16,538 nucleotides of DNA from positions 1 to 16,538 of the forward strand of contig JAKSQG010000023.1 of the NCBI GenBank assembly GCA_024404275.1, written 5' to 3'. Of the stretch, positions 1 through 14,304 are shown piece by piece. Within the stretch, counting starts at the first letter, position 1. The number at the start of each line of letters is the position of its first letter. Position numbers and translations under genes: made by a program. Source of the stretch: Clostridia bacterium (GTDB lineage: Bacteria > Bacillota > Clostridia > Christensenellales > Aristaeellaceae). A model generated the notes under the pieces. That model was not told where the DNA came from and did no database searches. It was given only the letters and a program-made list of their open reading frames with translations.

Positions 1-642
1 GCTCGCCCCGTGACGCTGTCCTTCATGCCGGGACAGGGCTATTCGTACTCGGGCGAGGGGTATTATTACCTTCAGCGCACCATCGAGCACCTTACCGGAA
101 AAACACTTCAGCAGCTGTATGAGCAGTTCATTTTTGAGCCTGCCGGCATGCATCACAGCGCCGTACAATGGCGGGATGAGCTGCGTACGTGCTTTGCTTC
201 CCGGCACGACGAGTCCGGTGTCCTCATGCCCTTCCGCGAGCATCCCGACAACAAAGGCGTCGCGCCATAGCCCAACGCCGCATGGAGCCTGTACACCACC
301 GCATCGGATTACGCCGCCTTCCTGCGCTACTTCCTGCATCAAAAAGGCGGTCTGACCGATCCAACCTTTTCCCTGCTGACCTCGCCGCAAAGCAAGGCGG
401 ATAAAACCGTCTGCTGGGGCATGGGCTTTGGCATGATCGCCCCCGAGCCGGGTCTTCTGTGGCACTGGGGCGACAACAAGGGCTACAAAAATATGATGGC
501 CGCCGATATCGTCTCCGGCTGTGCCATCGTGCTGCTCTCCAACAGCGATGGCGGTCTTGAAGCGGAAATGAACATCCTGCGCCGTCTGACCGACTGCACG
601 CATTGGAATGCCGTTGAAAGCTTTATCCAAACTGCCGAATAA
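1..642 (+). CDS. Serine hydrolase / beta-lactamase-family protein, C-terminal part (5' end lies outside the window), read through an in-frame TAG at 268-270
   Basis: Frame 1 is open from base 1. It carries a YSYSGEGYYYL (YxN-like) motif and a later HWGDNKGY (KTG/HxG-like) motif. ORFs 10..270 and 421..642 share one frame, and the stretch between them translates without stops as PNAAWSLYTTASDYAAFLRYFLHQKGGLTDPTFSLLTSPQSKADKTVCWG, typical of this fold. Final stop is TAA at 640-642. Confidence 0.75.
268..270 (+). other. In-frame TAG inside the serine hydrolase CDS (putative sense/recoded codon)
   Basis: Context is gcg cca TAG ccc aac. Family-like sequence continues in the same frame on both sides. 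Confidence 0.7.
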
Positions 643-647
643 AACGC

Positions 648-677
648 TTGTTCATGTATACTTTCCTATTGTATAAT
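648..677 (+). promoter_or_regulatory. Putative sigma-A promoter for the acyltransferase gene
   Basis: TTGTTC (648-653), an 18-nt spacer, then TATAAT (672-677). The RBS AAAGGAGAAAG and the ATG at 703 follow downstream. Confidence 0.4.
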
Positions 678-702
678 ATCATTGAATGAAAGGAGAAAGT
701 GC

Positions 703-2730
703 ATGAGCAAGCGTTCTGTACGCACCATCGTTACCGCCAACGGGCTGGGCAGCATTTATATGTTTATGTTTTCCATGCTGCTCTCCGGTTTTTTGCTGAA
801 AGCGCCGCTGATTGGAGGCGCCCTGGCCATGTGCGGCCATTGCGGCACGATCTTTATGGCTTCCTCTGTCAGCCGTGTGCATCTGCTGAGCAAAAAACAG
901 ACGCGCTTCCAGCAGGTCATTTATCTTCTGCTGCTCGTCATCAATCTGGCGCTGCTGTTCCTATATCCCATGGATGTCCCACGGATCAACGTCTGGATCC
1001 TGTTTTTTGTGCTGCTGTCTCTCACCTTCAGCGGCGGTGCCGCCCGGCAAATGCTGCGCCGCGGCCCGGTACAAAAAGCTCTGCGCCTTCATTTTATTCT
1101 GCAGATCGTCCTTGCCGTATCCGGATCCGCATTGCTGCTCTTCTGGTTCCCGCGCTATCTCTATCTGACCGGCGGCTACTTGCTCGCCTTCGTTCTGCAA
1201 TTGTATGAGTGCTCCGGTCCGCGCAACAGCATCCCGGCTGAAACGCCCGACCTGTCCGATGCGCACAGTGCTTTTCTCAAGGGCAATGTCTTCCGCCTGT
1301 ATGAGACCGCCAGCGTACTCATCACCATGGCCTGTTACATCTCCATCATTCTGGTCTATTGCTCGCTGGCGCTGACAGCGGAAGGTCTCTTCATCTCCAT
1401 GGCCATCGCCTTTGTCACCAACATTCTGTTTGCCGAGGCTGCCGATTATCTGCTCCGCGTGCAGGACAAGCGCAAAGCCATCAAGCCCGACACCGTCATC
1501 ATCTTCAGCCTGCTTTTGTGGCTATGCGGTCTGGTCATGTACAGCCGCTATATCCTGCGCTATGAGCCCAATCTGCTGGCCGTATACTTCGGCATGGGCA
1601 TGTGTTCTGCCGGCATCGCCGTCAGTGTCCGCTGCCTGTCGCAGATGGACCGTGTGGTTCGTCAGGCCGTGCTGCTCAACGCCGAGGCTGCCGCGCCGCA
1701 GTACAGCACGCTGAGCTTCTTTAGAAATGAGACCGCCGCCGCACTCAGTGAAATGGCCGCGCTCATCGTCATCACGCTGCTGTTCACCTTCAATCACGGC
1801 GCTTATTTCCAGCAGCTCTCCGTAGACCGACTGCAGCCCTTCCTGCTGCTGCCGGCGGTACTGCTGCTCATTGCCGCGCTGCTGACCATGCTGCGCTATC
1901 CCGCCACCAATTATTACGCACAAAAGTTAGCGCGTCTGCTGGGACTGCGTGCCTCGGGAAAAGTCAACGATGCCCTCACCCGTCAGGTGGAAAGCATCTT
2001 TGTCGAAGAACGCAAGCGTCCCCTTGGCACCAACATTCTCAAATTCCTGTTCCGTCCCTTCTGCCGTCATAAGCTTTCGGGCACCGAAAACATCCACGAG
2101 GACCCGGATAATCCGTTGGTATTCCTGTGCAACCATGCCTCGGTCTACGGTCCTTTGACCGCCGTGCTGAACATCCCCCAACCCGTTCGTCCCTGGGTCG
2201 TCAGCAACATCGTGGGCACCCCGCAATAGTTTGCCGATTATTTCCTCGAAAACACACTCGGCCCCGCCAAGCATTATCCCGAGCGCCTGAAGCCCGCCAC
2301 CGCGCTGTTTTTGGGCAAGCTCAGCGTATGGTGCATGCATCAGCTTGATTCCATCCCCGTCTACCGCGAAAAGCCCTCGCAGCTGCGTCAGACCTTCCGT
2401 CTTTCCTCCGACGCGCTGGAAAGCGGTGACAACCTGCTCATCTTCCCATAGGATCCCTCCGCGGAGTCTGACGGAGGTTATGTCCTGGAGGGCGTCGGTC
2501 ACCTCTATGAGGGCTTCACCCTGCTGGCGACAGTCTATTACAAGCGCACCGGCAAGTGCTGCCGCTTCCTGCCGATGTTTGCCCACAAGGAAAGCAAGAC
2601 CATCACCTTCGGGCAGGAAATCCGCTACGACCCCTCCCATCCCGACATCGAGGAACGCGAACGCATCTGCCGCGAAGCGGAACAGCAGATGCATGACCTG
2701 TACGAGCGTGCCTGTCGGAAGCATCCATAA
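703..2730 (+). CDS. Fusion protein of about 675 codons: N-terminal polytopic (MFS-like?) membrane domain plus C-terminal divergent PlsC/LPLAT-type acyltransferase domain, read through two in-frame TAGs
   Basis: ATG at 703 follows the RBS AAAGGAG. About 440 aa of repeated hydrophobic segments come first. The acyltransferase blocks are FLCNHASVYGP (an HX4D-like block, but with G where D is expected), SIPVYREK, and LLIFP-[TAG]-DPS at the motif III (FPEG-like) position. The frame stays open and protein-like from 2230 to the TAA at 2728-2730 apart from the TAGs at 2227 and 2449. Confidence 0.75.
2227..2229 (+). other. In-frame TAG number 1 in the acyltransferase CDS (putative sense codon)
   Basis: Context is ccg caa TAG ttt gcc, giving ...VGTPQ-X-FADYFLENTL... 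in the same frame as the ATG at 703. Confidence 0.7.
2449..2451 (+). other. In-frame TAG number 2 in the acyltransferase CDS, at the conserved Glu position of the FPEG-like motif
   Basis: Context is ttc cca TAG gat ccc, giving LLIFP-X-DPSAESDGGY. It is in frame with the start at 703 and the TAA at 2728. Confidence 0.7.
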
Positions 2731-2740
2731 ATCAGCATCA

Positions 2741-2772
2741 AAAAAGCGTCTTCCCTGCGGAAGACGCTTTTT
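2741..2772. terminator. Bidirectional rho-independent terminator between convergent genes
   Basis: AAAAAGCGTCTTCC, loop CTGC, GGAAGACGCTTTTT forms a perfect 14-bp stem with A/T runs on both sides. It sits between the TAA at 2730 (+) and the TAA at 2781 (-). Confidence 0.75.
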
Positions 2773-2780
2773 GATTGTCC

Positions 2781-3638
2781 TTACTTCACGGCGATGGTGC
2801 CGCTCGCAATGCTCTGCGTTCCTTTGCTGTTGACGGTTTTGCCTTCCGCCTCCACATTGATCTGTCCCCCGGTGATGGACAGGTCGGTAGCAGACTGAAT
2901 GCCGTCATCGCCGCTCACAATGGTGATACTGCCGCCGGCAATATACACATAGCCCTTGCCGGCTTTGTTATCCGTATCGGCCTTGATGCCGTCGCCCGCA
3001 GCGTTCAGCACGAGTGTACCATCCTTGATGGACACGGAATCATTGCCCTTCAGGGCATTCTTGGCGGCCACCACGGTGATATTGCCGGAAACAATGTGCA
3101 AATCGTTCTTGGTGCCGATACCGTTGCCCATGTTGCCGTTGACGGTCAGAATGCCGTTGCCGTTGATGCACAAATCATCCTTGGCATAGATGCAGGCATT
3201 GGGCTGCTTGTCCAGTGCCAACGTATACGCAGCGGCGTCCGTCAGCGTGTTGACAGAGCCGTCCGCCAGTGTGATCTTGCACTTATCGGCAGAAACGATA
3301 TAGATGGGGGCGCTGTCAGCGCAGGTGAGTGTCAGACCGTTCAGCACCAGATGCACCTTGGCGTTTTTGTCGACCTCCACCTGAACGCGGCCGTTAGCGC
3401 ATTCGCCGCTGAGCACATAAGTGCCCGCCGCATTGATATACACGGTGGTGCCATCCACAGCAGCGCCGCTGCCATTGACCAGTACGCCATTTTCAGAGAA
3501 GGTAACGGTCACCGCTTCGGTCCAGGAAGCGTCCAGATCATACTTGGTGAAGACATCGGAATAATCCGCCGCCATCGCGGAAGCCAGCATCATAGAAGCC
3601 AGCACAATGCTCAGCAGCAGGCTCATCAGTTTTTTCAT
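2781..3638 (-). CDS. Secreted beta-helix protein, probably a Cthe_2159-like carbohydrate-binding domain protein
   Basis: RBS AAAGGAG lies 7 nt before the ATG. The signal peptide MKKLMSLLLSIVLASMMLASAMA/AD precedes Gly/Asn/Asp-rich repeats (INGNGILTVNGN, ITVVAAKNALKGN, ITIVSGDDGIQS). The family assignment is from memory. Confidence 0.75.
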   Translation of the reverse strand: MKKLMSLLLSIVLASMMLASAMAADYSDVFTKYDLDASWTEAVTVTFSENGVLVNGSGAAVDGTTVYINAAGTYVLSGECANGRVQVEVDKNAKVHLVLNGLTLTCADSAPIYIVSADKCKITLADGSVNTLTDAAAYTLALDKQPNACIYAKDDLCINGNGILTVNGNMGNGIGTKNDLHIVSGNITVVAAKNALKGNDSVSIKDGTLVLNAAGDGIKADTDNKAGKGYVYIAGGSITIVSGDDGIQSATDLSITGGQINVEAEGKTVNSKGTQSIASGTIAVK

Positions 3639-3673
3639 GGAATGATCTCCTTTCGGTTTTCGGGAACATCTTT

Positions 3674-3702
3674 AGTGTACCATACCAATTATTGAAAAAC
3701 AA
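3674..3702 (-). promoter_or_regulatory. Possible promoter for the beta-helix gene
   Basis: On the minus strand: TTGTTT (3697-3702), a 17-nt spacer, then TGgTACACT, an extended -10 with its hexamer at 3674-3679. Confidence 0.35.
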
Positions 3703-3729
3703 CCGGAATTGCATGAACGGTGTGTGAAT

Positions 3730-5076
3730 TTACACCTTCGGTGGGGCGATATAGCCATACTTGTCGCGCAGCCGCACCCAGAAATATACCGTGACCGCCA
3801 GCGACAGCAGTTCTGAAAAGAAAACGGAAAGCCATACACCGTCCAACTGCCAGAATAGCGGCAGCAGCAGCACCATCCCCGCTTGAAACAGCAGCGTACG
3901 CACAAAGGAGATGCCCGCCGACACCGCGCCGTTGTTGAGTGCGGTAAAGAAAGCCGAGCCATAAATGTTGAACCCGCACAGCAGGAACGCCAGGCTGTAC
4001 AGCCGAAAGGCGTGCTCGGTCATGGCCAGCAGCTCGGCATCATAGCTGACATACAGCAGTGCCAGCGGTCGGGACAGACCGATGGCGATCGCCGTCATGC
4101 CGATTGCCGCCAAACCGATCAGGTGCAGGCTTTTGGCAAAAATATTCTGCAATTCTCTGCGATTCTGCGCCCCGTGGTTGAAGCTGACAATGGGTGCCGT
4201 GCCCATTGAATAGCCGATATAGACCGATATAAAGATGAAATTGACGTACATGATGACGCCGAACGCTGCCACCCCTGCTTCCCCTGCCAACCGCATCAGT
4301 TGAAAATTGAAAAGCATATTGACCACCGACAGGGAAATATTGGTCATAAACTCACTGACGCCGTTCGAGCATGTTTTCCAAAGCGCCGAAAGATCAAGCC
4401 AGGCGCTTCCCAGATGCAGGCGGCTGCGGTTTGGCAACGCGAAGTAGACAAGCGGAATGATGCCGCCTACCATCTGACTGATCGCAGTCGCCCAGGCGGC
4501 CCCCGTAACCCCCAAGCGCAGCATGCCCACCAGCACAGCATCGCCAACCATATTGGTCACGCCCGCGGCGATGGTCAGGTACAATCCCAGCTGCGGTCTC
4601 TCTGCTGCTACCAGAAAGCTTTGGAACAGATTCTGCAGCATGAAGGGGACAAGCGCCATCATGATGATGCGCCCGTAGTCCACACAGTAGGGCAGCATTT
4701 CCTCCGTCGCACCCAGCAGCAATGCCACATCCCTGAGCCATATTTCGCCGATGACAGTCAGAATCAGGCCCATGATGATGATAAAATACACCAGCATGCT
4801 GAAGATGCGGTTGGCCTCCCGCGGCTTATTTTCGCCAAACCGCATCGATACCAATGCCGTACCGCCCGTACCCACCATAAAGCCGATGGAGGAGAAAATC
4901 ATCAGGAAAGGCATGATCAGGTTGATGGCCGCAAAAGGCGTTTTCCCTGTCCAGTTGGACACAAAAAAGCCATCCACCACGCCGTAAATGGAGGTAAACA
5001 CCATCATGCCCACAGACGGCATCACAAACCGAAGCAGCTTTTTATAATCAAAATGATCCGACAGGGCAATGTTCAT
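3730..5076 (-). CDS. MATE-family multidrug/toxin efflux transporter
   Basis: 448 aa and about 12 hydrophobic segments. The N-terminus (KKLLRFVMPSVGMMVFTSIYGVVDGFFVSNWTG) is typical of MATE proteins. ATG at 5076 follows the RBS GGAGGAG. The upstream extension to 5166 lies inside the GNAT gene. Stop is TAA. Confidence 0.88.
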   Translation of the reverse strand: MNIALSDHFDYKKLLRFVMPSVGMMVFTSIYGVVDGFFVSNWTGKTPFAAINLIMPFLMIFSSIGFMVGTGGTALVSMRFGENKPREANRIFSMLVYFIIIMGLILTVIGEIWLRDVALLLGATEEMLPYCVDYGRIIMMALVPFMLQNLFQSFLVAAERPQLGLYLTIAAGVTNMVGDAVLVGMLRLGVTGAAWATAISQMVGGIIPLVYFALPNRSRLHLGSAWLDLSALWKTCSNGVSEFMTNISLSVVNMLFNFQLMRLAGEAGVAAFGVIMYVNFIFISVYIGYSMGTAPIVSFNHGAQNRRELQNIFAKSLHLIGLAAIGMTAIAIGLSRPLALLYVSYDAELLAMTEHAFRLYSLAFLLCGFNIYGSAFFTALNNGAVSAGISFVRTLLFQAGMVLLLPLFWQLDGVWLSVFFSELLSLAVTVYFWVRLRDKYGYIAPPKV

Positions 5077-5089
5077 ATCGCTCCTCCGT

Positions 5090-5716
5090 TCAGAAACGCC
5101 TAATGAAGCTCCAGCTGCCAAATCCCCGCCCGTTGTGCTCAAAGCGTCGCTCGTCAAACACCTCAAAACCGTTTTTCAGGTAAAAGCGGCGGTTGGGTTC
5201 GGAATTGGTAAACAGGCTCACCGCCTCGGCACCGTGCTCACGGGCATAGGGCAGCAGCCCCTCCTGCACAAAGCGGCTGCCGATACCCTTCCCTTCCTCG
5301 GATGAAGCCACGGTCAGCAGGCTCAGGTACCATGTATTGCCGTGAAGCGCATGACAGGGCGCAGACGCCTGCGGCTCCATGGCATTCCAGGCATTGACAT
5401 CCTTGCTGCCGCCGCGGCGAAGGACACCGAGCCAGCCTGCGCACACATACGCCCAGTCCCCGGGCTTCTTGAAATCGGGTGCGCAAAGCTGTCCGACCGC
5501 CACGATATGTCCGTTTTCTTTGGCGGTGATAAAATGAACGGTGGGCAAGCTCTTATTGGCCTTGAATTCACAGCGCAGCAGCGCATCCAGAAAACGGTGA
5601 CGCCGCTCGTCTTCCGTCACATATGCCGCAAAATACTCATAATCATAAAAAGCCCGGGCCGCCAGAGCAGCGCACTCCTTCCACTCGGAGGGCTTCATTT
5701 TTTCAAATGTCAGCAT
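5090..5716 (-). CDS. GNAT-family N-acetyltransferase
   Basis: 208 aa. ATG at 5716 follows the RBS AAGGAG. An acetyl-CoA binding-like block (EEGKGIGSRF) and a C-terminal NRRFYLKNGFEV are present. Stop is TGA at 5090-5092, 13 nt before the MATE start. Confidence 0.82.
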   Translation of the reverse strand: MLTFEKMKPSEWKECAALAARAFYDYEYFAAYVTEDERRHRFLDALLRCEFKANKSLPTVHFITAKENGHIVAVGQLCAPDFKKPGDWAYVCAGWLGVLRRGGSKDVNAWNAMEPQASAPCHALHGNTWYLSLLTVASSEEGKGIGSRFVQEGLLPYAREHGAEAVSLFTNSEPNRRFYLKNGFEVFDERRFEHNGRGFGSWSFIRRF

Positions 5717-5740
5717 TTCAAAACTCCTTTTGAATATATG

Positions 5741-5774
5741 AAAAAAGACGCTTGCTTTCGCAACCGTCTTTTTA
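5741..5774 (-). terminator. Terminator of the tRNA operon
   Basis: Minus strand reads AAAAGACGGTTGC-GAAA-GCAAGCGTCTTTTTT: a stem with one mismatch followed by a T6 run, immediately 3' of tRNA-Cys. Confidence 0.55.
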
Positions 5775-5775
5775 C

Positions 5776-5850
5776 TGGAGGCGCAGTCCGGATTCGGACC
5801 GGAGCATAAAGGTTTTGCAGACCTTCGCCTTACCACTTGGCTACTGCGCC
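5776..5850 (-). tRNA. tRNA-Cys (GCA), CCA encoded
   Basis: Hand-folded: acceptor GGCGCAG/CTGCGCC, anticodon arm AAGGT-CTGCAAA-ACCTT, T arm TCCGG-TCCGAAT-CCGGA. The T loop has C where the near-universal U55 is expected. Confidence 0.9.
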
Positions 5851-5858
5851 GAAAAAAA

Positions 5859-5934
5859 TGGAGCGGTAGACGAGGCTCGGACTCGCGACCTCAACCTTGG
5901 CAAGGTTGCGCTCTACCAACTGAGCTACTACCGC
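5859..5934 (-). tRNA. tRNA-Gly (GCC), CCA encoded
   Basis: Acceptor GCGGTAG/CTACCGC, anticodon arm CAACC-TTGCCAA-GGTTG, T arm GCGAG-TCCGAGC-CTCGT. The T loop again has C at the U55 position. Confidence 0.9.
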
Positions 5935-5939
5935 ACACA

Positions 5940-6015
5940 TGGTGCCTTGGGGCGGAATCGAACCACCGACACGCAAATTTTCAGTCTGCTGCTCTACCTA
6001 CTGAGCTACCAAGGC
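5940..6015 (-). tRNA. tRNA-Phe (GAA), CCA encoded
   Basis: Acceptor GCCTTGG/CCAAGGC, anticodon arm GCAGA-CTGAAAA-TTTGC, canonical T loop TTCGATT. Confidence 0.92.
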
Positions 6016-6020
6016 ATATA

Positions 6021-6097
6021 TGGCGACCCGAATGGGGCTCGAACCCATGACCTCCAGCGTGACAGGCTGGCGTTCTAACCAACTGAACTACCGGGCC
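6021..6097 (-). tRNA. tRNA-Asp (GTC), CCA encoded
   Basis: Acceptor GGCCCGG/TCGGGTC with two G-U pairs, anticodon arm CCAGC-CTGTCAC-GCTGG, T loop TTCGAGC. Confidence 0.9.
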
Positions 6098-6105
6098 ACA
6101 ATTTG

Positions 6106-6181
6106 TGGTGGGAACAACAGGGCTCGAACCTGTGACCCTTTGCTTGTAAGGCAAATGCTCTCCCAGCTGAGCTATGCTCCC
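6106..6181 (-). tRNA. tRNA-Val (TAC), CCA encoded
   Basis: Acceptor GGGAGCA/TGTTCCC, anticodon arm TTTGC-CTTACAA-GCAAA, T loop TTCGAGC. Confidence 0.9.
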
Positions 6182-6205
6182 GTGGCGTCTTGCAACGCGT
6201 ATATA

Positions 6206-6234
6206 ATGATACCTTATCCAAGTGCATTTGTCAA
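6206..6234 (-). promoter_or_regulatory. Promoter of the tRNA operon
   Basis: Minus strand: TTGACA (6229-6234), a 17-nt spacer, then TATCAT (6206-6211), about 25 nt upstream of the tRNA-Val 5' end. Confidence 0.6.
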
Positions 6235-6301
6235 GCGTTTTTTCGTTCGTTTTTAAAAAAAGTTTGTTCGTATCATCTTTGTCCTTGAAACGGATTCGCA
6301 A

Positions 6302-6337
6302 ACAAAAATGCAGGGCCCCCCGAAGGGAGCCCTGCAA
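6302..6337 (-). terminator. Rho-independent terminator of the ABC transporter operon
   Basis: Minus strand: TGCAGGGCTCCC-TTCG-GGGGGCCCTGCA followed by TTTTTG, starting 12 nt after the binding-protein TAA. Confidence 0.75.
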
Positions 6338-6348
6338 GGTGCATCGAA

Positions 6349-7371
6349 TTACTTGGTGGTAACGGCGGTGTACAGGGTGTTCCAGTGATCCAGGATCTGA
6401 GCCTTGTTTTCGGTCAGGAACTTGACATCGCGGGTAACCCACTTGATGTCTTCGGTAGCGGGCAGATAGGACTCGGCACCGTACTCGGTGTTCTTGTTGG
6501 TCATACGCAGGGTCTGCAGGCCGGCGGCGATGGTGGTAGAACCTTCCTTGGAGCAGATCCAGTCGATCATGGCCTTGGCGGCGGCTTCGTGCTTGGCGCC
6601 CTTGATCACGGCAGCACCGAAAGCGGAAGCGGAGGAGCCTTCAGCGGGATAGATCATGGCCACGTTGGTAGCGCCCTGCTGCAGCAGCTTGGACACGCCA
6701 TCTTCGTAGGTCAGACCAACCACGTATTCGCCCTTCTGGACGGAGTTGAAGCAGGCAGAGGAGCTTTCGGTGATGACCAGGTTGGGCATCAGCTGCTCGA
6801 TGTAAGCCCAGGCTTCCTCGCTGTCATGTCCGTACACGGCCATGATGTTGCACAGGTTGTTCCAGGCAGAGGAGGAGGAGTTGGGGTTGGCCAGCAGGAT
6901 CTGACCCTTCAGGGCGGGAGTCAGCAGGTCAGCATAGCCCTTGATGTCCAGGCCCAGCTGAGCAGCCAGCTCGGTGTTGACGCAGAACACGACGGTGGAC
7001 AGATGGTCCATGGAGTAGAAGCCGTTGTCGCAGGCATAGCCTTCGATGGCTTCGGCGGAGTACTCAGACACCCAGTGCTCGAACAGATCAGAGTAGTTCA
7101 TGCCGTCGGAGTCGCACAGGCCGCCCCAAACCAGGTCGCCCTGGGGGTTGGCAGCTTCAGCGGCGATACGGCCAACGGTCTCACCGATCTTGCCGTACAC
7201 GGTCTCGACTTCGATGTCAGGATACACCTCGGCAAAGCCGTCCAGCATCACGTCCAGGTCGGTCTGAGTCATGGTGGTGTACAGGATCAGGGTATTGCCC
7301 AGATCTTCGGCGATGGCAGTGCAGCCAAGCGCCATCATGGCAACCAGAAGCAGCGCGAGGAACTTTTTCAT
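6349..7371 (-). CDS. ABC transporter substrate-binding protein (Fe3+/Fbp-like family 1 SBP), probable lipoprotein
   Basis: 340 aa. ATG at 7371 follows the RBS GGAAAGGAG. The signal sequence MKKFLALLLVAMMALGC has a lipobox-like ALGC. The sequence looks like a periplasmic-binding fold, and the gene lies downstream of the permease and ATPase. The substrate is not determinable from sequence. Confidence 0.8.
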   Translation of the reverse strand: MKKFLALLLVAMMALGCTAIAEDLGNTLILYTTMTQTDLDVMLDGFAEVYPDIEVETVYGKIGETVGRIAAEAANPQGDLVWGGLCDSDGMNYSDLFEHWVSEYSAEAIEGYACDNGFYSMDHLSTVVFCVNTELAAQLGLDIKGYADLLTPALKGQILLANPNSSSSAWNNLCNIMAVYGHDSEEAWAYIEQLMPNLVITESSSACFNSVQKGEYVVGLTYEDGVSKLLQQGATNVAMIYPAEGSSASAFGAAVIKGAKHEAAAKAMIDWICSKEGSTTIAAGLQTLRMTNKNTEYGAESYLPATEDIKWVTRDVKFLTENKAQILDHWNTLYTAVTTK

Positions 7372-7442
7372 AGGGGTAACTCTCCTTTCCTTAATAGGAA
7401 AATATTCCTTAATGCGGATGCTCTCCGCATAAAGTACAGGTT

Positions 7443-9104
7443 TTACATGCGGATGTCTTCGGACTTGCTGATGGCAAGGTAGGCAACCAGCACCAGGGTG
7501 GTGACCGCCGTCAGAATGGAGGCAAAGGCACACGCAGGGCCATAGCTGCCGTTGCTGATGGCGATGTAGGTGGACATGGTCAGGTTGATGGTCTTGTTGT
7601 TGTACAGCATGATGCTGCTGGACAGTTCGGTCACGATGGAGACCCAGCTCAGCACGGCGCCGGAAAGGATGCCGCTGGACATCATGGGCACCGTCACCTT
7701 GATGAAGGTCTTGAGTTTGGAACTGCCCAGGGATATGGCGGCTTCCTCTGTACTGATGGGGATCTGCATCAGCGTTGCGGTCGCCGATCGTATCGTATAG
7801 GGCATTCTTCGTATGACCATCGACAAGATCATGATCAGCATGGTGCCGGTCAGACCGAAGGGAGCGGGACCAAAGGACATGATGAGCGCGATACCGATGA
7901 CGGAACCGGGCATGATGTAGGGCAGCATCGACATGGTATCGATGGTGTTGTTCATCATGCTGCGGCGGCGCACCACCAGGTAGGCGATCAGAATGGCAAA
8001 GATAATGATAATGGCCAGAGCCGCAATGGACTGGTACAGCGTGTTGGTGATGGAGCGGCCCAGCAGCAAGCGCTTTTTGCTGATAATGGTCTCATAGTTG
8101 ACCAGCGAGAAGCCATCCTTGAACACCATGCCGTTCACGTTGCGGAAGGACAGGTAGATGATGTACACCTGAGGCAGGAAAGCGATGGCGCACAGACCGT
8201 AGCAGTACACATACATCAGCACACCGGCAATGCCCTTGGGCTTTTTCTTTTCAACGGGGTGCAGGCTGTTGATGGAGAACTTGTACTTGCCGGTCGCCCA
8301 CTTCTGGAAGAAGAACACCACGGCGGTGACCAGAATGGCGATGACGGAGATAGCAGCGGCAAAGTTGTGGTTGGTGCCGTTTTCACCCAGGTACTGGCTG
8401 TAGATCTCGACGGGGAAGGTACGATAGCCTTCACCGATCAAAAGGGGCGTACCGAAGTCGGCAATGGCACGCATGAAAACGATCAGCGCCGCCGCCAGAA
8501 TGGTGGGCATCGACAGGTTCATCACGATGCGGAAGAAACGCTTCACGCCTGTGCAGCCCATGTTGGCGGAAGCCTCCATCAAGCTGTTGTCGATGTTCTT
8601 GAAGGCACCGTTCATGTAGATGAACACCAGCGGGAACAGCTTCAGGCTCTGCACCAGCGTGATGCCGCCAAAACCGTAGATATTGCCGATATCGATGCCA
8701 AGGTAGTTTTTAAGGAACTGCGTGATCACGCCGGAGCGACCCAGCAGCATGATCCAGGAATAAGCGCCGATGAAGGGGGCGGACATACAGCACAGAATGC
8801 TGATGACAAACAGGAATTTGGCACCCTTCAGCCGGTAGAAGCTGTAGAAGTACGAGAAGGGAATACCGATCAGCAGTGTAACAAGCGTAACGACCAGCGT
8901 CACCTTGGCGCTGTTGGTAATGGTAATGGTGTAGTAGGGGTTGGAGAAGAATTTGGTAAACTGTGCCAGAGACAGTTCGCCCTGATCACTGTAGACCGAC
9001 TGGCGCAGAATGCCAAACAGCGGATAGATCAGGATCAGCAGGAACAGCAGAAGGAAGAAGACCGAAATGACCGACCAGACATCGCGTTTTTTTCTTTCCA
9101 TCAT
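7443..9104 (-). CDS. ABC transporter permease, fused double-domain type (FbpB/ThiP-like)
   Basis: 553 aa and about 12 TM segments in two homologous halves. The RBS GGAGG precedes ATGATG at 9104. Stop is TAA. Confidence 0.85.
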   Translation of the reverse strand: MMERKKRDVWSVISVFFLLLFLLILIYPLFGILRQSVYSDQGELSLAQFTKFFSNPYYTITITNSAKVTLVVTLVTLLIGIPFSYFYSFYRLKGAKFLFVISILCCMSAPFIGAYSWIMLLGRSGVITQFLKNYLGIDIGNIYGFGGITLVQSLKLFPLVFIYMNGAFKNIDNSLMEASANMGCTGVKRFFRIVMNLSMPTILAAALIVFMRAIADFGTPLLIGEGYRTFPVEIYSQYLGENGTNHNFAAAISVIAILVTAVVFFFQKWATGKYKFSINSLHPVEKKKPKGIAGVLMYVYCYGLCAIAFLPQVYIIYLSFRNVNGMVFKDGFSLVNYETIISKKRLLLGRSITNTLYQSIAALAIIIIFAILIAYLVVRRRSMMNNTIDTMSMLPYIMPGSVIGIALIMSFGPAPFGLTGTMLIMILSMVIRRMPYTIRSATATLMQIPISTEEAAISLGSSKLKTFIKVTVPMMSSGILSGAVLSWVSIVTELSSSIMLYNNKTINLTMSTYIAISNGSYGPACAFASILTAVTTLVLVAYLAISKSEDIRM

Positions 9105-9122
9105 TTACCTCCGCGCCGTCTG

Positions 9123-10238
9123 TCAGCGGATCAGGTCGTTGACAACGCCGGTCAGCAGGTTATCGGTGCCTTCGGCATTGAACAGGTTGACCTTGTCGGT
9201 ATTGATGTTGAGCGAGATCTCGGCGCCGGGGGTCAGGGTGTCCTCAATGGTGGACTCCTGAATGATCTACGCTTCCTCGCCGGTCTCCATGGTAACAAAG
9301 TAGTGGGTGTTGAGTCCGAGGAACACGGCGTCATCCACCTTGGCGCGGATCAGACCCGCGGAAGCGTCACGGCTGAGCAGCAGCTCTTCGGGACGCAGGG
9401 AGATAATCACATCCTGCTCCTTGGCGCATTCGGGGCGCACGTTATGGATGGCCACCTTGTTGCCGTTGGGCAGCACCACCATGGTCTGACCGTTTTCGAT
9501 GACCATCTTGCCCTGCATTTGGTTGGAGCGGCCGATAAAGTTGGCCACAAACAGGTTGGCGGGGCGCTGATAGAGGTTTTTGGGCGTGCCCACATGCTGA
9601 ATGACGCCGCCGTTCATAACGGCAATGCGGTCGGATACCGCCATGGCTTCTTCCTGATCGTGGGTAACATACACGGTGGTGATGCCGACATCGTGCTGGA
9701 TGTGCTTGATGACGGTACGCATCTCCACGCGCAGCTTGGCGTCCAGGTTGGAAAGAGGTTCATCCATCAGCAGCACCTGCGGCTCAATGCACAGGGCACG
9801 GGCGAGGGCGACACGCTGCTGCTGACCACCGGACAGGCGATCGGGCATGCGGTCGGCCAGACCGTCGATCTGCATCAGCTTCAGGAAGCGGTCCGCCTGC
9901 GTGTGGATCTGGCTTTTGGGCATATGCTTGTTGGTCAGACCGAATTCCACGTTCTTGCGCACGGAATAGTGCGGAAATACGGCATAATTCTGGAATACCA
10001 TACCAATGTTGCGGCGGGAAGGATCGAGATCGTTGATGCGGGTCTCGTTAAAATAAAAATCGCCGCCCTCGATGCTGTTAAAACCGGCAATCATGCGCAG
10101 CAGCGTGGTCTTGCCGCAGCCGGAAGGTCCGAGCAGTGTGAAGAATTCGCCCTCACGGATATCCAGGTTCAGATCGGGAATGATCACATTGCTGCCATAT
10201 TTTTTCAGCGCGTGCTGAATGCGGATATTGACGCTCAT
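9123..10238 (-). CDS. ABC transporter ATP-binding protein (PotA/FbpC-like) with C-terminal TOBE-like domain, read through an in-frame TAG
   Basis: ATG at 10238 follows the RBS AAGGAG. Walker A is GPSGCGKTT, the signature is LSGGQQQRVALARAL, and Walker B is LLMDEPLSNLD. After the TAG (9267-9269) the same frame reads IIQESTIEDTLTPGAEISLNINTDKVNLFNAEGTDNLLTGVVNDLIR and ends at TGA 9123-9125. This gives a normal length of about 371 codons and leaves an 18-nt gap before the permease start. Confidence 0.8.
9267..9269 (-). other. In-frame TAG in the ABC ATPase CDS (putative sense codon)
   Basis: Minus-strand context is gaa gcg TAG atc att, giving ...METGEEA-X-IIQEST... Confidence 0.7.
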
Positions 10239-10307
10239 AGCCGTATACTCCTTTTTTATGGACGTTTCACCGTGAAATGCTTTAAAATTGCGAACATGGA
10301 TGCTTAA

Positions 10308-10336
10308 ATAGTAGCATTCATTTACCATTTTGTCAA
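10308..10336 (-). promoter_or_regulatory. Promoter of the ABC transporter operon
   Basis: Minus strand: TTGACA (10331-10336), a 17-nt spacer, then TACTAT (10308-10313), about 65 nt upstream of the ATPase ATG. Confidence 0.55.
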
Positions 10337-10377
10337 TAACTACGCCCCAAAATATGTGGAGCCGTGGAAAACACCCC

Positions 10378-10407
10378 TTGAAGTATCAAACCGTTCACTG
10401 GTATAAT
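10378..10407 (+). promoter_or_regulatory. Promoter of the ansA-uvrA operon
   Basis: TTGAAG (10378-10383), an 18-nt spacer, then TGgTATAAT, an extended -10 with its hexamer at 10402-10407. The RBS AAAGGAG lies before the ATG at 10442. Confidence 0.6.
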
Positions 10408-10441
10408 AGACCGACCGGAAACGCCGGAAAAGGAGTCTGAA

Positions 10442-11473
10442 ATGACAAAAAAGATATTGCTGATCTACACCGGAGGCACCATCGGCATGACCGCCACCGC
10501 AAACGGCTACGCGCCGCAGAAGGAAGCGTTTCATCAGCTGCTCCACAGCATGCCGGGGCTCAATGCCGATGTAATGCCCGAATGGGATATTATCGATATG
10601 GACCCGCTGCTCGATTCCGCCAATATGACGGCGCACGAGTGGAACAAGATCGGCGGCATGATCGCCGACCATTACGAAGCCTATGACGGCTTTGTGGTGC
10701 TGCATGGCACCGATACCATGGCGTATACCGCCTCCGCCCTGTCCTTTATGCTGGAAAACTGCCGCAAGCCCGTTGTGCTGACAGGCGCGCAGATTCCCCT
10801 GTGCGAGGTGCGCAGCGATGCTCGCGACAACCTGCTCACCGCCATGCTGATCGCCGGCGAAGGCGTGGTCAAAGAGGTCTGCCTGTACTTCGGCGGCAGC
10901 CTGCTGCGCGGCAACCGCGCCACCAAATTCTCCTCCGATGGGCTCATCGCCTTCATCTCCCCCAACTATCCGCTGTTGGCGGAAGCCGGCATCAGCATCA
11001 AATACAACACTTCGGCACTGCTCAAGCCCCAGCGCGGTCCCTTCCGTCTGCGCCGCATGGACGATGTGCCCATCGGCGTACTCAAGATTTTCCCGGGCAT
11101 CCAGTTTGAGCTGTTTGAAGCCATCATGACTGAAAAACTGCGCGGCATCGTCATCGAGACGTTCGGCGCCGGCAACATTCCCGGCAGCGGCACGGCATTG
11201 CTGCCCATCATCCGCCGCGCCTACGCCAACGGCACCGTGCTGACCGTCTGCTCCCAGTGCCCGCAAGGCGCGGTCGCCCTCGGCGCGTATGAGACCAGCA
11301 CAGCGCTCAAAAACGCGGGTGCTGTCAGCGGCTATGACATCACCACCGAGGCGGCGGTGACCAAGCTCTACTATCTTTTCAGCTGCGGTTTTGATACCGA
11401 CAGCGTCAAGCATCTGATGGAAAGCAATCTGCGCGGGGAGATGACCCGCCGCGACGCTTCGGAGGAAAAATGA
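10442..11473 (+). CDS. ansA: L-asparaginase, type I (cytoplasmic)
   Basis: 343 aa. The catalytic motifs [11 protein letters not shown] and [10 protein letters not shown] are present. The TGA stop overlaps the uvrA ATG (ATGA). Confidence 0.88.
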
Positions 11474-14304
11474 ACGACTCCATTATCGTAAAAGGTGCCC
11501 GGCAGCACAACCTCAAAAACGTCTCCGTCACGCTGCCTCGCAACAAGCTGATCGTTTTCACCGGTCTGTCGGGCAGCGGCAAAAGCAGCCTTGCCTTTGA
11601 TACCATTTATGCCGAGGGACAGCGCCGCTATGTGGAAAGCATGTCCTCCTATGCCCGTCAGTTTCTGGGGCAGATGGACAAGCCCGAGGTCGACTCCATC
11701 GAGGGGCTTTCCCCCGCCATCTCCATCGATCAGAAAACAACTGCCCGCAACCCGCGTTCCACCGTGGGCACCGTGACCGAGATCCACGATTATTTAAGGC
11801 TTCTGTACGCCCGCACAGGCATTCCGCACTGCCCCACCTGCAGACGGTAGATCCGCCGTCAGAGCGTGGATGAAATCGTGGAGACCGTTCTTTCCTGGCC
11901 GCAGGGCTCAAGGCTTTTGCTGCTCTCCCCCGTGGTGCGTGCCCGTAAGGGTGAACACATCAAGCTGCTGGAGCAGGCGCTGAAGGACGGCTTCCTGCGT
12001 GTGCGCATCGACGGCGAAATGTACGAGCTGGATGATCCGCCCAAGCTGGACAAGCAGAAGAAGCACACCATCGAGATCGTGGTGGACCGCCTCATCCTGC
12101 GCCCCGATATCCGTCAGCGCCTGACCGACAGCATCGAAACTGCCATGAAGCAGAGCGGCGGTCTTGTCACCGTCATGCTGGCGGACGGCAGCATGGAAAC
12201 GCAGTTTTCCCAGAATTACGCCTGTCCCGAATGCGGCGTCAACATCGAAGAACTGACGCCCCGCATGTTTTCCTTCAACAATCCCTACGGCGCCTGCCCG
12301 CATTGCAGCGGTCTGGGCGTGATGATGAAGATCAGCGAGGACCTGTGCATCCCCGACCGCAGCCTGTCTCTGGCACAGGGAGCCGTCAGCTGCATGGGCT
12401 GGAGCAGCGGCAGCGAAAGCAGCATGGCCGCGGGCATGTTCCGCGGTCTGGCGGAGCGCTACGGCTTCAGCATGGATACGCCTGTGCGCGACCTGCCCCC
12501 CAAGGCGCTCGAGGTCATCCTGTACGGCACCAATGGCGAAAAGATCGATGTCAGCTACGATTCCATCCACGGTCACGGCGTGTACAAGACCGCCTTTGAG
12601 GGCGTCATTCCCTCCATGGAGCGCCGCTACCGTGAAACGCAGAGCGACAGCATGAAGGCGGTCTACGAAGAGTACATGACCACCATGCCCTGCCCCGAAT
12701 GTCACGGCATGCGCCTCAAAAAGGAAGCGCTCGCCGTCACGGTGGGCGGCAAAAACCTTGCCGAACTCAGCGATATGAACATCCGCAAGGCCCGTGATTT
12801 TCTGACCGCACTGGAGCTGGATGCCACCCGCACCATGATCGCGGGACCTATCCTCCGCGAGGTGGACAGCCGTCTGGGCTTCTTGTGCAACGTGGGTCTG
12901 GAATACCTGACGCTCTCCCGCGGCGCTGCCACCCTTTCGGGCGGTGAGGCGCAGCGCATCCGCCTTGCCACGCAGATCGGCAGCGGCCTCATGGGTGTAC
13001 TGTATATTTTGGATGAGCCCAGCATCGGTCTGCATCAGCGCGACAACGCCCGCCTGCTGGCCACCATGCAGCGGCTGCGTGATCTTGGCAATACGCTCAT
13101 CGTGGTCGAACACGATGAAGAGACTCTCCGTTCCGCCGATTATGTGGTGGATATCGGTCCGGGGGCGGGCATCCACGGCGGCAACATCGTCGCCGCAGGT
13201 ACGGTCGAGGAGATCATGAACACCCCCGGCTCCATCACCGGCGATTATCTGGCAGGACGCCGCGTCATCGCCGTACCCGAAACCCACCGCGTTCCCACCG
13301 GCTGGCTGACCGTCCGCGGTGCCCGCGAACACAACCTCAAAAACATCGATGCCGCCTTCCCGCTGGGCGTTTTCTGCTGCGTAACGGGCGTTTCCGGCAG
13401 CGGCAAGAGCAGTCTGGTCAATGCCATCGTGCACAAAACGCTGGCAAGGGATCTGAACCGTGCCCGTACTGTGCCCGGCGAATGCGACGGCATCGAGGGC
13501 ATGGACCGGCTGGATAAGATTATCTGCATCGATCAGAGCCCCATCGGGCGCAGCCCGCGCAGCAACCCCGCCACCTATACCGGCTTGTTCGATATCATCC
13601 GCAAGGTGTTTGCGCAAACGCCCGAAGCCAAGGTCCGCGGCTACAAGGAGAACCGCTTCTCCTTCAACGTCAAGGGCGGCCGCTGCGAAGCCTGCTCCGG
13701 CGATGGCGTGCTCAAGATCGAAATGCACTTCATGCCCGATCTGTATGTGCCCTGCGAGGTCTGCGGCGGCAAACGCTATAATTATGAAACGCTGCAGGTC
13801 AAATACCGCGGCTACAGCATCTCGGACATATTGGAAATGACCATCGAGGACGCCATGGGCGTGTTTGAAGCCTTCCCGCAGATCATGTCCCGTCTCAAAA
13901 CGCTCAGCGAGGTCGGTCTCGGGTACATCAAGCTCGGTCAGCCCGCCACCACCCTGTCGGGCGGCGAGGCGCAGCGTGTCAAGCTGGCGACCGAACTGAG
14001 CCGCCGCACCACGGGACGCACACTCATCCTGCTGGATGAGCCCACCACGGGACTTCACACCGATGACGTCAGCCGCCTCATCCACATTCTGCAGCGTCTG
14101 ACCGATGCGGGCAACACCGTGCTGGTCATTGAGCACAACCTGGATGTCATCAAAACCGCCGACTATGTGCTCGACCTCGGTCCCGAGGGCGGCGACAAGG
14201 GCGGTCAGATCGTCGCCGCGGGCACGCCCGAGCAGGTAGCGGCTGTCGAAGGCAGCTACACCGGTCAGTACCTCAAAAAGATCGGCATCACACCTCAGGC
14301 ATAA
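11470..14304 (+). CDS. uvrA: Excinuclease ABC subunit A, full length (944 codons), read through an in-frame TAG
   Basis: Two Walker A motifs ([20 protein letters not shown]), two signatures ([24 protein letters not shown]) and Zn-finger Cys clusters are present. ORFs 11470..11850 and 11866..14304 share one frame, and the junction ...[25 protein letters not shown]... is colinear with known UvrA proteins. Stop is TAA. Confidence 0.92.
11848..11850 (+). other. In-frame TAG in uvrA (putative sense codon)
   Basis: Context is aga cgg TAG atc cgc. The UvrA sequence is uninterrupted on both sides. Confidence 0.75.

Follow-up and report, generated by a model that had tools for sequence, protein, structure and literature searches.

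In-frame TAG codons that behave as glutamate codons in a narrow, uncultured clade of gut Clostridia

Stop codons read as sense codons in bacteria include UGA, which encodes tryptophan in Mycoplasmatales and others (NCBI table 4) and glycine in Gracilibacteria/Absconditabacteria (table 25). UAR (UAA or UAG) encodes glutamate in the peritrich ciliates (table 30) and Blastocrithidia (table 31), and suppressor tRNA genes with the anticodon CUA are known in the code-15 phages. To our knowledge, reassignment of UAG is known only in phages (to glutamine), in users of pyrrolysine (Pyl), and in eukaryotes. The known bacterial stop-codon reassignments all involve UGA according to the Codetta paper (PMC8629427), and none of the bacterial reassignments listed in a 2026 KACI screen of 2.7 million assemblies is at TAG, its unpublished full table being a place where this could differ (10.64898/2026.04.02.715157). 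Eukaryotic codes with UAG read as glutamate are described in a further source (PMC12153298). No published report of UAG read as glutamate in bacteria was found; papers outside the literature searched may exist. We analyzed a gene at positions 703 to 2730 of the forward strand of a 16,538-nucleotide stretch of a Clostridia bacterium assembly (GCA_024404275.1, contig JAKSQG010000023.1; hereafter, the window). It carries two in-frame TAGs and ends at TAA. The codons found at the same sites in sister genomes indicate that a narrow, uncultured clade of gut Clostridia very probably uses TAG as a rare sense codon for glutamate and produces the protein in its full length of 675 residues.

The forward-strand frame of this gene is open from 643 to 2730 apart from the TAGs at 2227–2229 and 2449–2451, and it is closed by TAA at 2728–2730, which confirmed the claim of an earlier note on this DNA that two in-frame TAGs lie inside one gene. 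The start codon ATG at 703 is located 8 nt 3' of AGGAG, and among the 675 codons of the gene, the TAGs are numbers 509 and 583. The earlier note had counted 74 codons between the TAGs and 92 after the second; the latter number is right, the former is actually 73, and the peptides quoted there (SIPVYREK, YYKRTGKCCRFLPMF, and LLIFP-X-DP) were found in frame. The chance of 166 open codons past a true stop was estimated to be approximately 0.008, using the off-frame frequency of TAA and TGA in the window (approximately 2.9% per codon). A protein search retrieved only three relatives of the full encoded protein. P0001 (98% identical) has E at the first TAG column and stops exactly before the second, and P0002 (62% identical) has E at both; the alignment with P0002 and 80 further family members spans the protein from end to end and continues through both TAGs. 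Public entries predicted under table 11 end at the first TAG of each genome, with lengths of 508 (MCQ2453464.1), 582 (P0001), and 595 (P0126) amino acids. MCQ2453464.1, cut at the first TAG, is the "hypothetical protein" under which the window gene is annotated in this NCBI metagenome-assembled genome (MAG).

The meaning of TAG was examined by comparing four assemblies, independent of one another, from a single narrow clade of Clostridia with a nucleotide divergence of 4–10%: the window, L001 (Logan SRR27361835; 93.3% nucleotide identity over window 1–5842), L004 (GenBank MAG JAZRWA010000076.1, "Clostridia bacterium SGB_3710"; 89.7% over window 1–12698), and L122 (ENA ERZ27247129; 95.9% over window 1527–10716). 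A total of 10 in-frame TAG sites were identified in six genes. In the gene at 703–2730, codon 509 (2227–2229) is TAG in the window, GAG in L001 and L122, and GAA in L004, and codon 583 (2449–2451) is TAG in the window, L001, and L122 and GAG in L004. Two further sites of this gene are Glu codons in the window: codon 596 (2488–2490, forward strand) is GAG there and TAG in L001 and L004, and codon 639 (2617–2619, forward strand) is GAA in the window and L001 and TAG in L004; L122 has no TAG at either. In the beta-lactamase-fold gene, the codon at 268–270 (forward strand) is TAG in the window and L001 and GAG in L004, the region being uncovered in L122. Codon 324 of the ABC-transporter ATPase gene (9267–9269, reverse strand) is TAG in the window, GAG in L004, and GAA in L122 (uncovered in L001), and codon 127 of uvrA (11848–11850, forward strand) is TAG in both the window and L004 (uncovered in L001 and L122). 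The remaining three sites are uncovered in the window and L122. One site of the PfkB gene is TAG in L001 and GAG in L004, another is GAG in L001 and TAG in L004, and a site of a PG-binding/SH3 gene is GAA in L001 and TAG in L004.

Thus, a sense counterpart is available in a sister genome at nine of the 10 TAG sites, it is always GAG or GAA, and the swaps run both ways. CAG, AAG, TGG, TAY, TTG, or TCG was never found opposite TAG at the nine informative sites of the four assemblies. GAG accounts for approximately 17% of the sense codons one step from TAG as used in the window (GAG 116, CAG 119, AAG 134, TGG 50, TAC 90, TAT 88, TTG 37, and TCG 36), and from this share, the probability of obtaining Glu counterparts at nine of nine sites by chance is approximately 1e-7. 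As the turnover between TAG and GAG/GAA is bidirectional, TAG behaves as a synonymous Glu codon. We regard these codon swaps as decisive evidence for TAG as Glu, going beyond the motif argument; at the level of codon comparison, they show that the TAGs are translated with a meaning equivalent to that of GAR (GAG or GAA). The remark in the earlier note that every TAG is one G-to-T step from GAG is correct, but it holds for any TAG and is hence uninformative.

The columns of homologous proteins at the TAG sites were inspected for 82 family members, consisting of the three sister contigs, L002 (JGI 3300020112), and 78 GTDB loci. The column of codon 583 is Glu in all 82. At codon 509, only 53 of 83 homologues have Glu, which is weaker than for codon 583 and the UvrA site, and Glu is one of the common residues in the columns of codons 596 and 639, which vary. 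The TAG column of UvrA is E in the closest solved UvrA (9GXK) and Glu in 120 of the 120 nearest homologues (motif CGREIRQQS), and the clue for Glu that had been drawn from this column is thereby borne out. The tentative proposal of the earlier note that TAG means Glu is supported by both the GAR counterparts at nine of 10 sites and these columns. Both TAGs of the gene at 703–2730 are real and, judging from these comparisons, almost certainly read as Glu.

The ratio of nonsynonymous to synonymous substitution rates (dN/dS) between the window and L004, calculated using the Nei–Gojobori method, was 0.098 upstream of the first TAG, 0.076 between the TAGs, and 0.077 after the second TAG of the gene at 703–2730. 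The corresponding values upstream and downstream of the single TAG were 0.027 and 0.028 for the ABC-transporter ATPase gene and 0.026 and 0.036 for uvrA, while an out-of-frame control gave 3.3. As dN/dS is as low downstream as upstream, the segments past the TAGs are translated, and both pseudogenes and truncated products are excluded. The beta-lactamase-fold gene evolves faster, with a dN/dS of 0.26 downstream of its TAG (271–639) versus 0.03–0.10 in the other genes.

The protein encoded at 703–2730 consists of a polytopic membrane domain of approximately 430 residues with approximately 10 hydrophobic segments, followed by a C-terminal LPLAT-like domain. The window protein has no PF01553 match at E <= 0.01. 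Weak PF01553 matches were obtained for 39 of 39 family members using the C-terminal 245 residues (best E 1.5e-6), P0002 scoring 17.4 bits versus a cut-off of 23 bits, and the matches to TIGR00530 were also weak (14–17 bits versus a cut-off of 103 bits). The family profile matches the T. maritima PlsC structure 5KYM at E = 0.028 only, with "nllifPEnpn" placed on "tfivFPEGTR". Three motif-like elements were located on the forward strand of the window. The motif I-like CNHASVYGP (2128–2154) contains the H-x4-G divergence reported earlier in place of H-x4-D; in the family (NH[G/A][E/S]xYGP), N, H, G, and P are invariant, and an invariant Gly takes the place of the catalytic Asp of LPLAT motif I. 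Most family members have NHGE, with Glu two residues after the His, and the window clade has NHAS. The motif II-like IPVYR (2353–2367) contains an invariant Arg. In the motif III-like LLIFP-TAG-DP (2434–2457), P and E are invariant in the family and F nearly so, and D/N-P follows instead of G-T/S-R. The earlier note had placed the second TAG at the conserved Glu of motif III, and this is upheld by the 82 of 82 Glu and the profile alignment with the E of FPEG in 5KYM. The Glu of the FPE motif, which is invariant in the family and probably catalytic, is probably provided by codon 583. AlphaFold2 on P0002 with a three-sequence alignment gave a predicted local distance difference test score (pLDDT) of 37. 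The "acyltransferase domain" of the earlier note stands as a remote LPLAT-like similarity, with scores that fall below the curated thresholds, and the description that best suits the protein is that of a membrane domain of approximately 10 helices joined to a remote LPLAT-like domain. The LPLAT-like family ranges over Christensenellales-like gut and rumen Clostridia.

On the contigs compared, the TAG recoding is confined to a narrow clade. The remaining GTDB orthologues of the LPLAT-like gene are at most 48% identical, and six of them (at most 39% identity) terminate at TAG. The nearest UvrA relatives, one of which is named Christensenellales, are 78–80% identical, and their genes are intact and full length; on the contigs of the nearest UvrA outgroups, one of nine and one of 16 genes stop at TAG. 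As TAG is used as a stop in these more distant relatives, the outgroups are on the standard code. The share of TAG among the stops of the relatives is approximately 10% (101 of 1005), a low use that favors a codon capture route. The code looks recent and still spreading, since even genomes with a divergence of only 4–10% do not share all of their TAG sites. The nearest lineage outside the clade, L002 (13 kb; 62% amino acid identity), has no TAG, either stop or sense, in its 11 genes, which could be chance or a TAG-depleted stage and is uninformative. The open-frame length after TAG was too noisy as a detector of further recoded loci, as neighboring genes of this GC-rich DNA are frequently in the same frame. 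Four contigs from bins labeled Phocaeicola dorei, Bacteroidaceae, Alloprevotella, and Saccharibacteria (L011, L030, L033, and L051) carry the Clostridia-type membrane/LPLAT-like gene; these contigs were probably mis-binned or mislabeled.

We consider it likely that this Christensenellales-related clade, represented by at least four assemblies, uses an undescribed bacterial code in which UAG has changed fully from stop to Glu, presumably through the loss of release factor 1 (RF1) and the gain of a Glu-accepting tRNA(CUA). Under this code, both TAGs would be inserted as Glu by a dedicated tRNA with the anticodon CUA carrying Glu, and RF1 would be lost or disabled, leaving release factor 2 (RF2) to terminate translation at TAA or TGA. 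The tRNA may have arisen from tRNA-Glu(CUC) by a C36-to-A change, or it may derive from a tRNA-Gln amber suppressor that receives Glu from a non-discriminating glutamyl-tRNA synthetase (GluRS) and is not amidated by GatCAB. Because the anticodon is normally recognized by GluRS, the charging of a CUA tRNA with Glu implies that GluRS has adapted or that the suppressor is of tRNA-Gln origin.

Some results weigh against a complete reassignment to Glu. No tRNA with the anticodon CUA was found using ARAGORN and Rfam in the window, L001, L002, L004, or all 80 related loci. The tRNA-Glu genes of the relatives share the anticodon arm CCGCCCT[T/C]TCACGGCGG, and a search for a tRNA-Glu-type arm with CUA (GACRCCGCCYTCTAANGGCGG) in JGI metagenomes yielded four matches, all of which were non-tRNA hairpins. 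In addition, the finding that none of approximately 16 genes of the clade end at TAG is not significant versus the 10% background of the relatives (p of approximately 0.19). A looser arm pattern gave 29 matches in IMG/VR, with no Glu-like tRNA-CUA among them and two lying within tRNA-Leu(UAG) as read from the other strand. A tRNA with the anticodon CUA is present in the large tRNA arrays of two IMG/VR phage contigs (L090, 2704–2774, reverse strand; L098, 1773–1848, forward strand); these are typical TAG-recoding phages that were met incidentally through the pattern scan.

Other explanations of the TAGs were weighed against the reading of TAG as Glu. TAG could have a dual meaning if a Glu-inserting amber suppressor reads through it partially while RF1 is kept and some genes still end at TAG. 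The rarity of the codon (five in 4888) agrees with this, as does the absence of TAG among the approximately 16 stops of the clade, which fits the relatives' 10% background. However, TAG occupies an invariant, probably catalytic Glu as well as a site in uvrA, its frequent two-way turnover with GAR resembles neutral synonymous change, dN/dS is as low downstream as upstream, and the partial truncation of approximately one-third of all genes would be costly; we therefore consider a dual meaning unlikely. Another view takes the TAGs as nonsense mutations in decaying pseudogenes, in line with the products of 508, 582, and 595 amino acids to which standard-code annotation shortens the protein. TAG is, however, the sole interruption, with no internal TAA, TGA, or frameshift; the sister codons are always GAR; the downstream dN/dS is 0.03–0.08; and uvrA is hit along with others, making four of 12 genes, in four assemblies. 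Decay is already contradicted by these data, and we give it almost no credence.

Pyrrolysine, as in Pyl-using Bacillota, and glutamine, as in code-15 phages, are both established meanings of TAG. Either is very improbable here, as the sister codons were never AAR or CAR, despite CAG being as frequent as GAG and a single transition away from TAG, the FPE and UvrA columns are Glu in 82 of 82 and 120 of 120 proteins, respectively, and the region is chromosomal (uvrA, tRNA array, and transporters). A sequencing or assembly artefact, such as oxidative G-to-T errors, would be compatible with the single G-to-T change that separates TAG from GAG. Its probability is close to negligible, since assemblies made independently from different samples have TAG sites in common (268 in the window and L001; 2449 in the window, L001, and L122; 2488 in L001 and L004; and 11848 in the window and L004), and random damage would not strike solely the first base of Glu codons.

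There are 12 genes in the window: a beta-lactamase-fold gene that is incomplete at the window start (1–642, forward strand; PF00144 match), the LPLAT-like gene, those for a Cthe_2159 protein, a MATE transporter, and a GNAT acetyltransferase, the ABC-transporter genes for a solute-binding protein, a permease, and an ATPase (the last at 9123–10238, reverse strand, with ABC_tran and TOBE_2 domains), and those for an asparaginase, UvrA (11470–14304, forward strand, with one sense TAG), a helix-turn-helix (HTH) protein, and a SHOCT protein. Five in-frame TAGs are spread over four of the 12 genes (4888 codons), which contain no internal TAA or TGA; eight genes end at TAA and four at TGA. TAG makes up approximately 2% of the Glu codons of the window and occurs at approximately 0.3 per kb. 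A tRNA array, Val(UAC)-Asp(GUC)-Phe(GAA)-Gly(GCC)-Cys(GCA), is located at 5776–6181 on the reverse strand and contains neither a tRNA-CUA nor a tRNA-Glu; all five tRNAs recur in L004, with their order unchanged and their Rfam scores identical. A domain search found no pyl genes in the window. A phage origin of the region was rejected based on its chromosomal content of uvrA, the tRNA array, and transporters. The stop codon of the asparaginase gene overlaps the start of uvrA (ATGA, 11470–11473), an arrangement that suggests translational coupling of the two genes. In L001, the annotation splits the beta-lactamase-fold gene into products of 206 and 73 amino acids and makes PfkB 36 codons too short.

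Approximately one-third of the genes in the MAGs of this clade are truncated or split in public databases, as exemplified by MCQ2453464.1 with 508 instead of 675 residues. If TAG encodes Glu in these bacteria, they would be the first cellular prokaryotes with amber reassigned to a canonical amino acid; their code would extend the genetic code tables by one entry and would provide a natural counterpart to the engineered RF1-free, amber-recoded strains. A natural Glu-accepting amber-suppressor pair may result, which would be notable given the normal dependence of GluRS on the anticodon. As a young reassignment, it would allow the codon-capture and ambiguous-intermediate models to be tested on neighboring genomes. 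It would also be relevant to the barriers between phages and hosts in the gut, a habitat in which TAG-recoded phages abound.

The LPLAT-like domain resembles PlsC/LPLAT proteins (PF01553; 5KYM) in the order of its motif-like elements (NH..., ...R, FPE, and hydrophobic-P) and in the alignment of its FPE Glu with that of FPEG. It differs from them in the Gly that replaces the Asp of HX4D, the D/N-P after FPE, the sub-threshold scores, the fusion to a membrane domain of approximately 430 residues, and a range limited to Christensenellales-like gut Clostridia. As for the code, the bacterial UGA codes (tables 4 and 25) are similar in that a stop codon is captured chromosome-wide in a bacterial lineage and that standard annotation truncates the genes; in the clade described here, the codon is UAG, the amino acid is Glu, and RF1 rather than RF2 is expected to be dispensable. 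Code 15 of crAss-like, Lak, and other gut phages (TAG as Gln) involves the same codon in the same animal and human gut habitat, whereas the present case concerns a cellular chromosome, as judged from uvrA and the tRNA array, with the meaning Glu and no CAR sister codon. Pyrrolysine decoding (pylTSBCD; some Bacillota, Deltaproteobacteria, and archaea) also translates in-frame UAG in Bacillota-type genomes, but Pyl is mainly found in methylamine methyltransferases, while TAG here interchanges with GAR in ordinary housekeeping genes. The eukaryotic UAR codes share the meaning of UAG as glutamate; they are nuclear, reassign UAA as well, and involve changes in eRF1, whereas the window clade keeps TAA as its main stop (eight of the 12 window genes).

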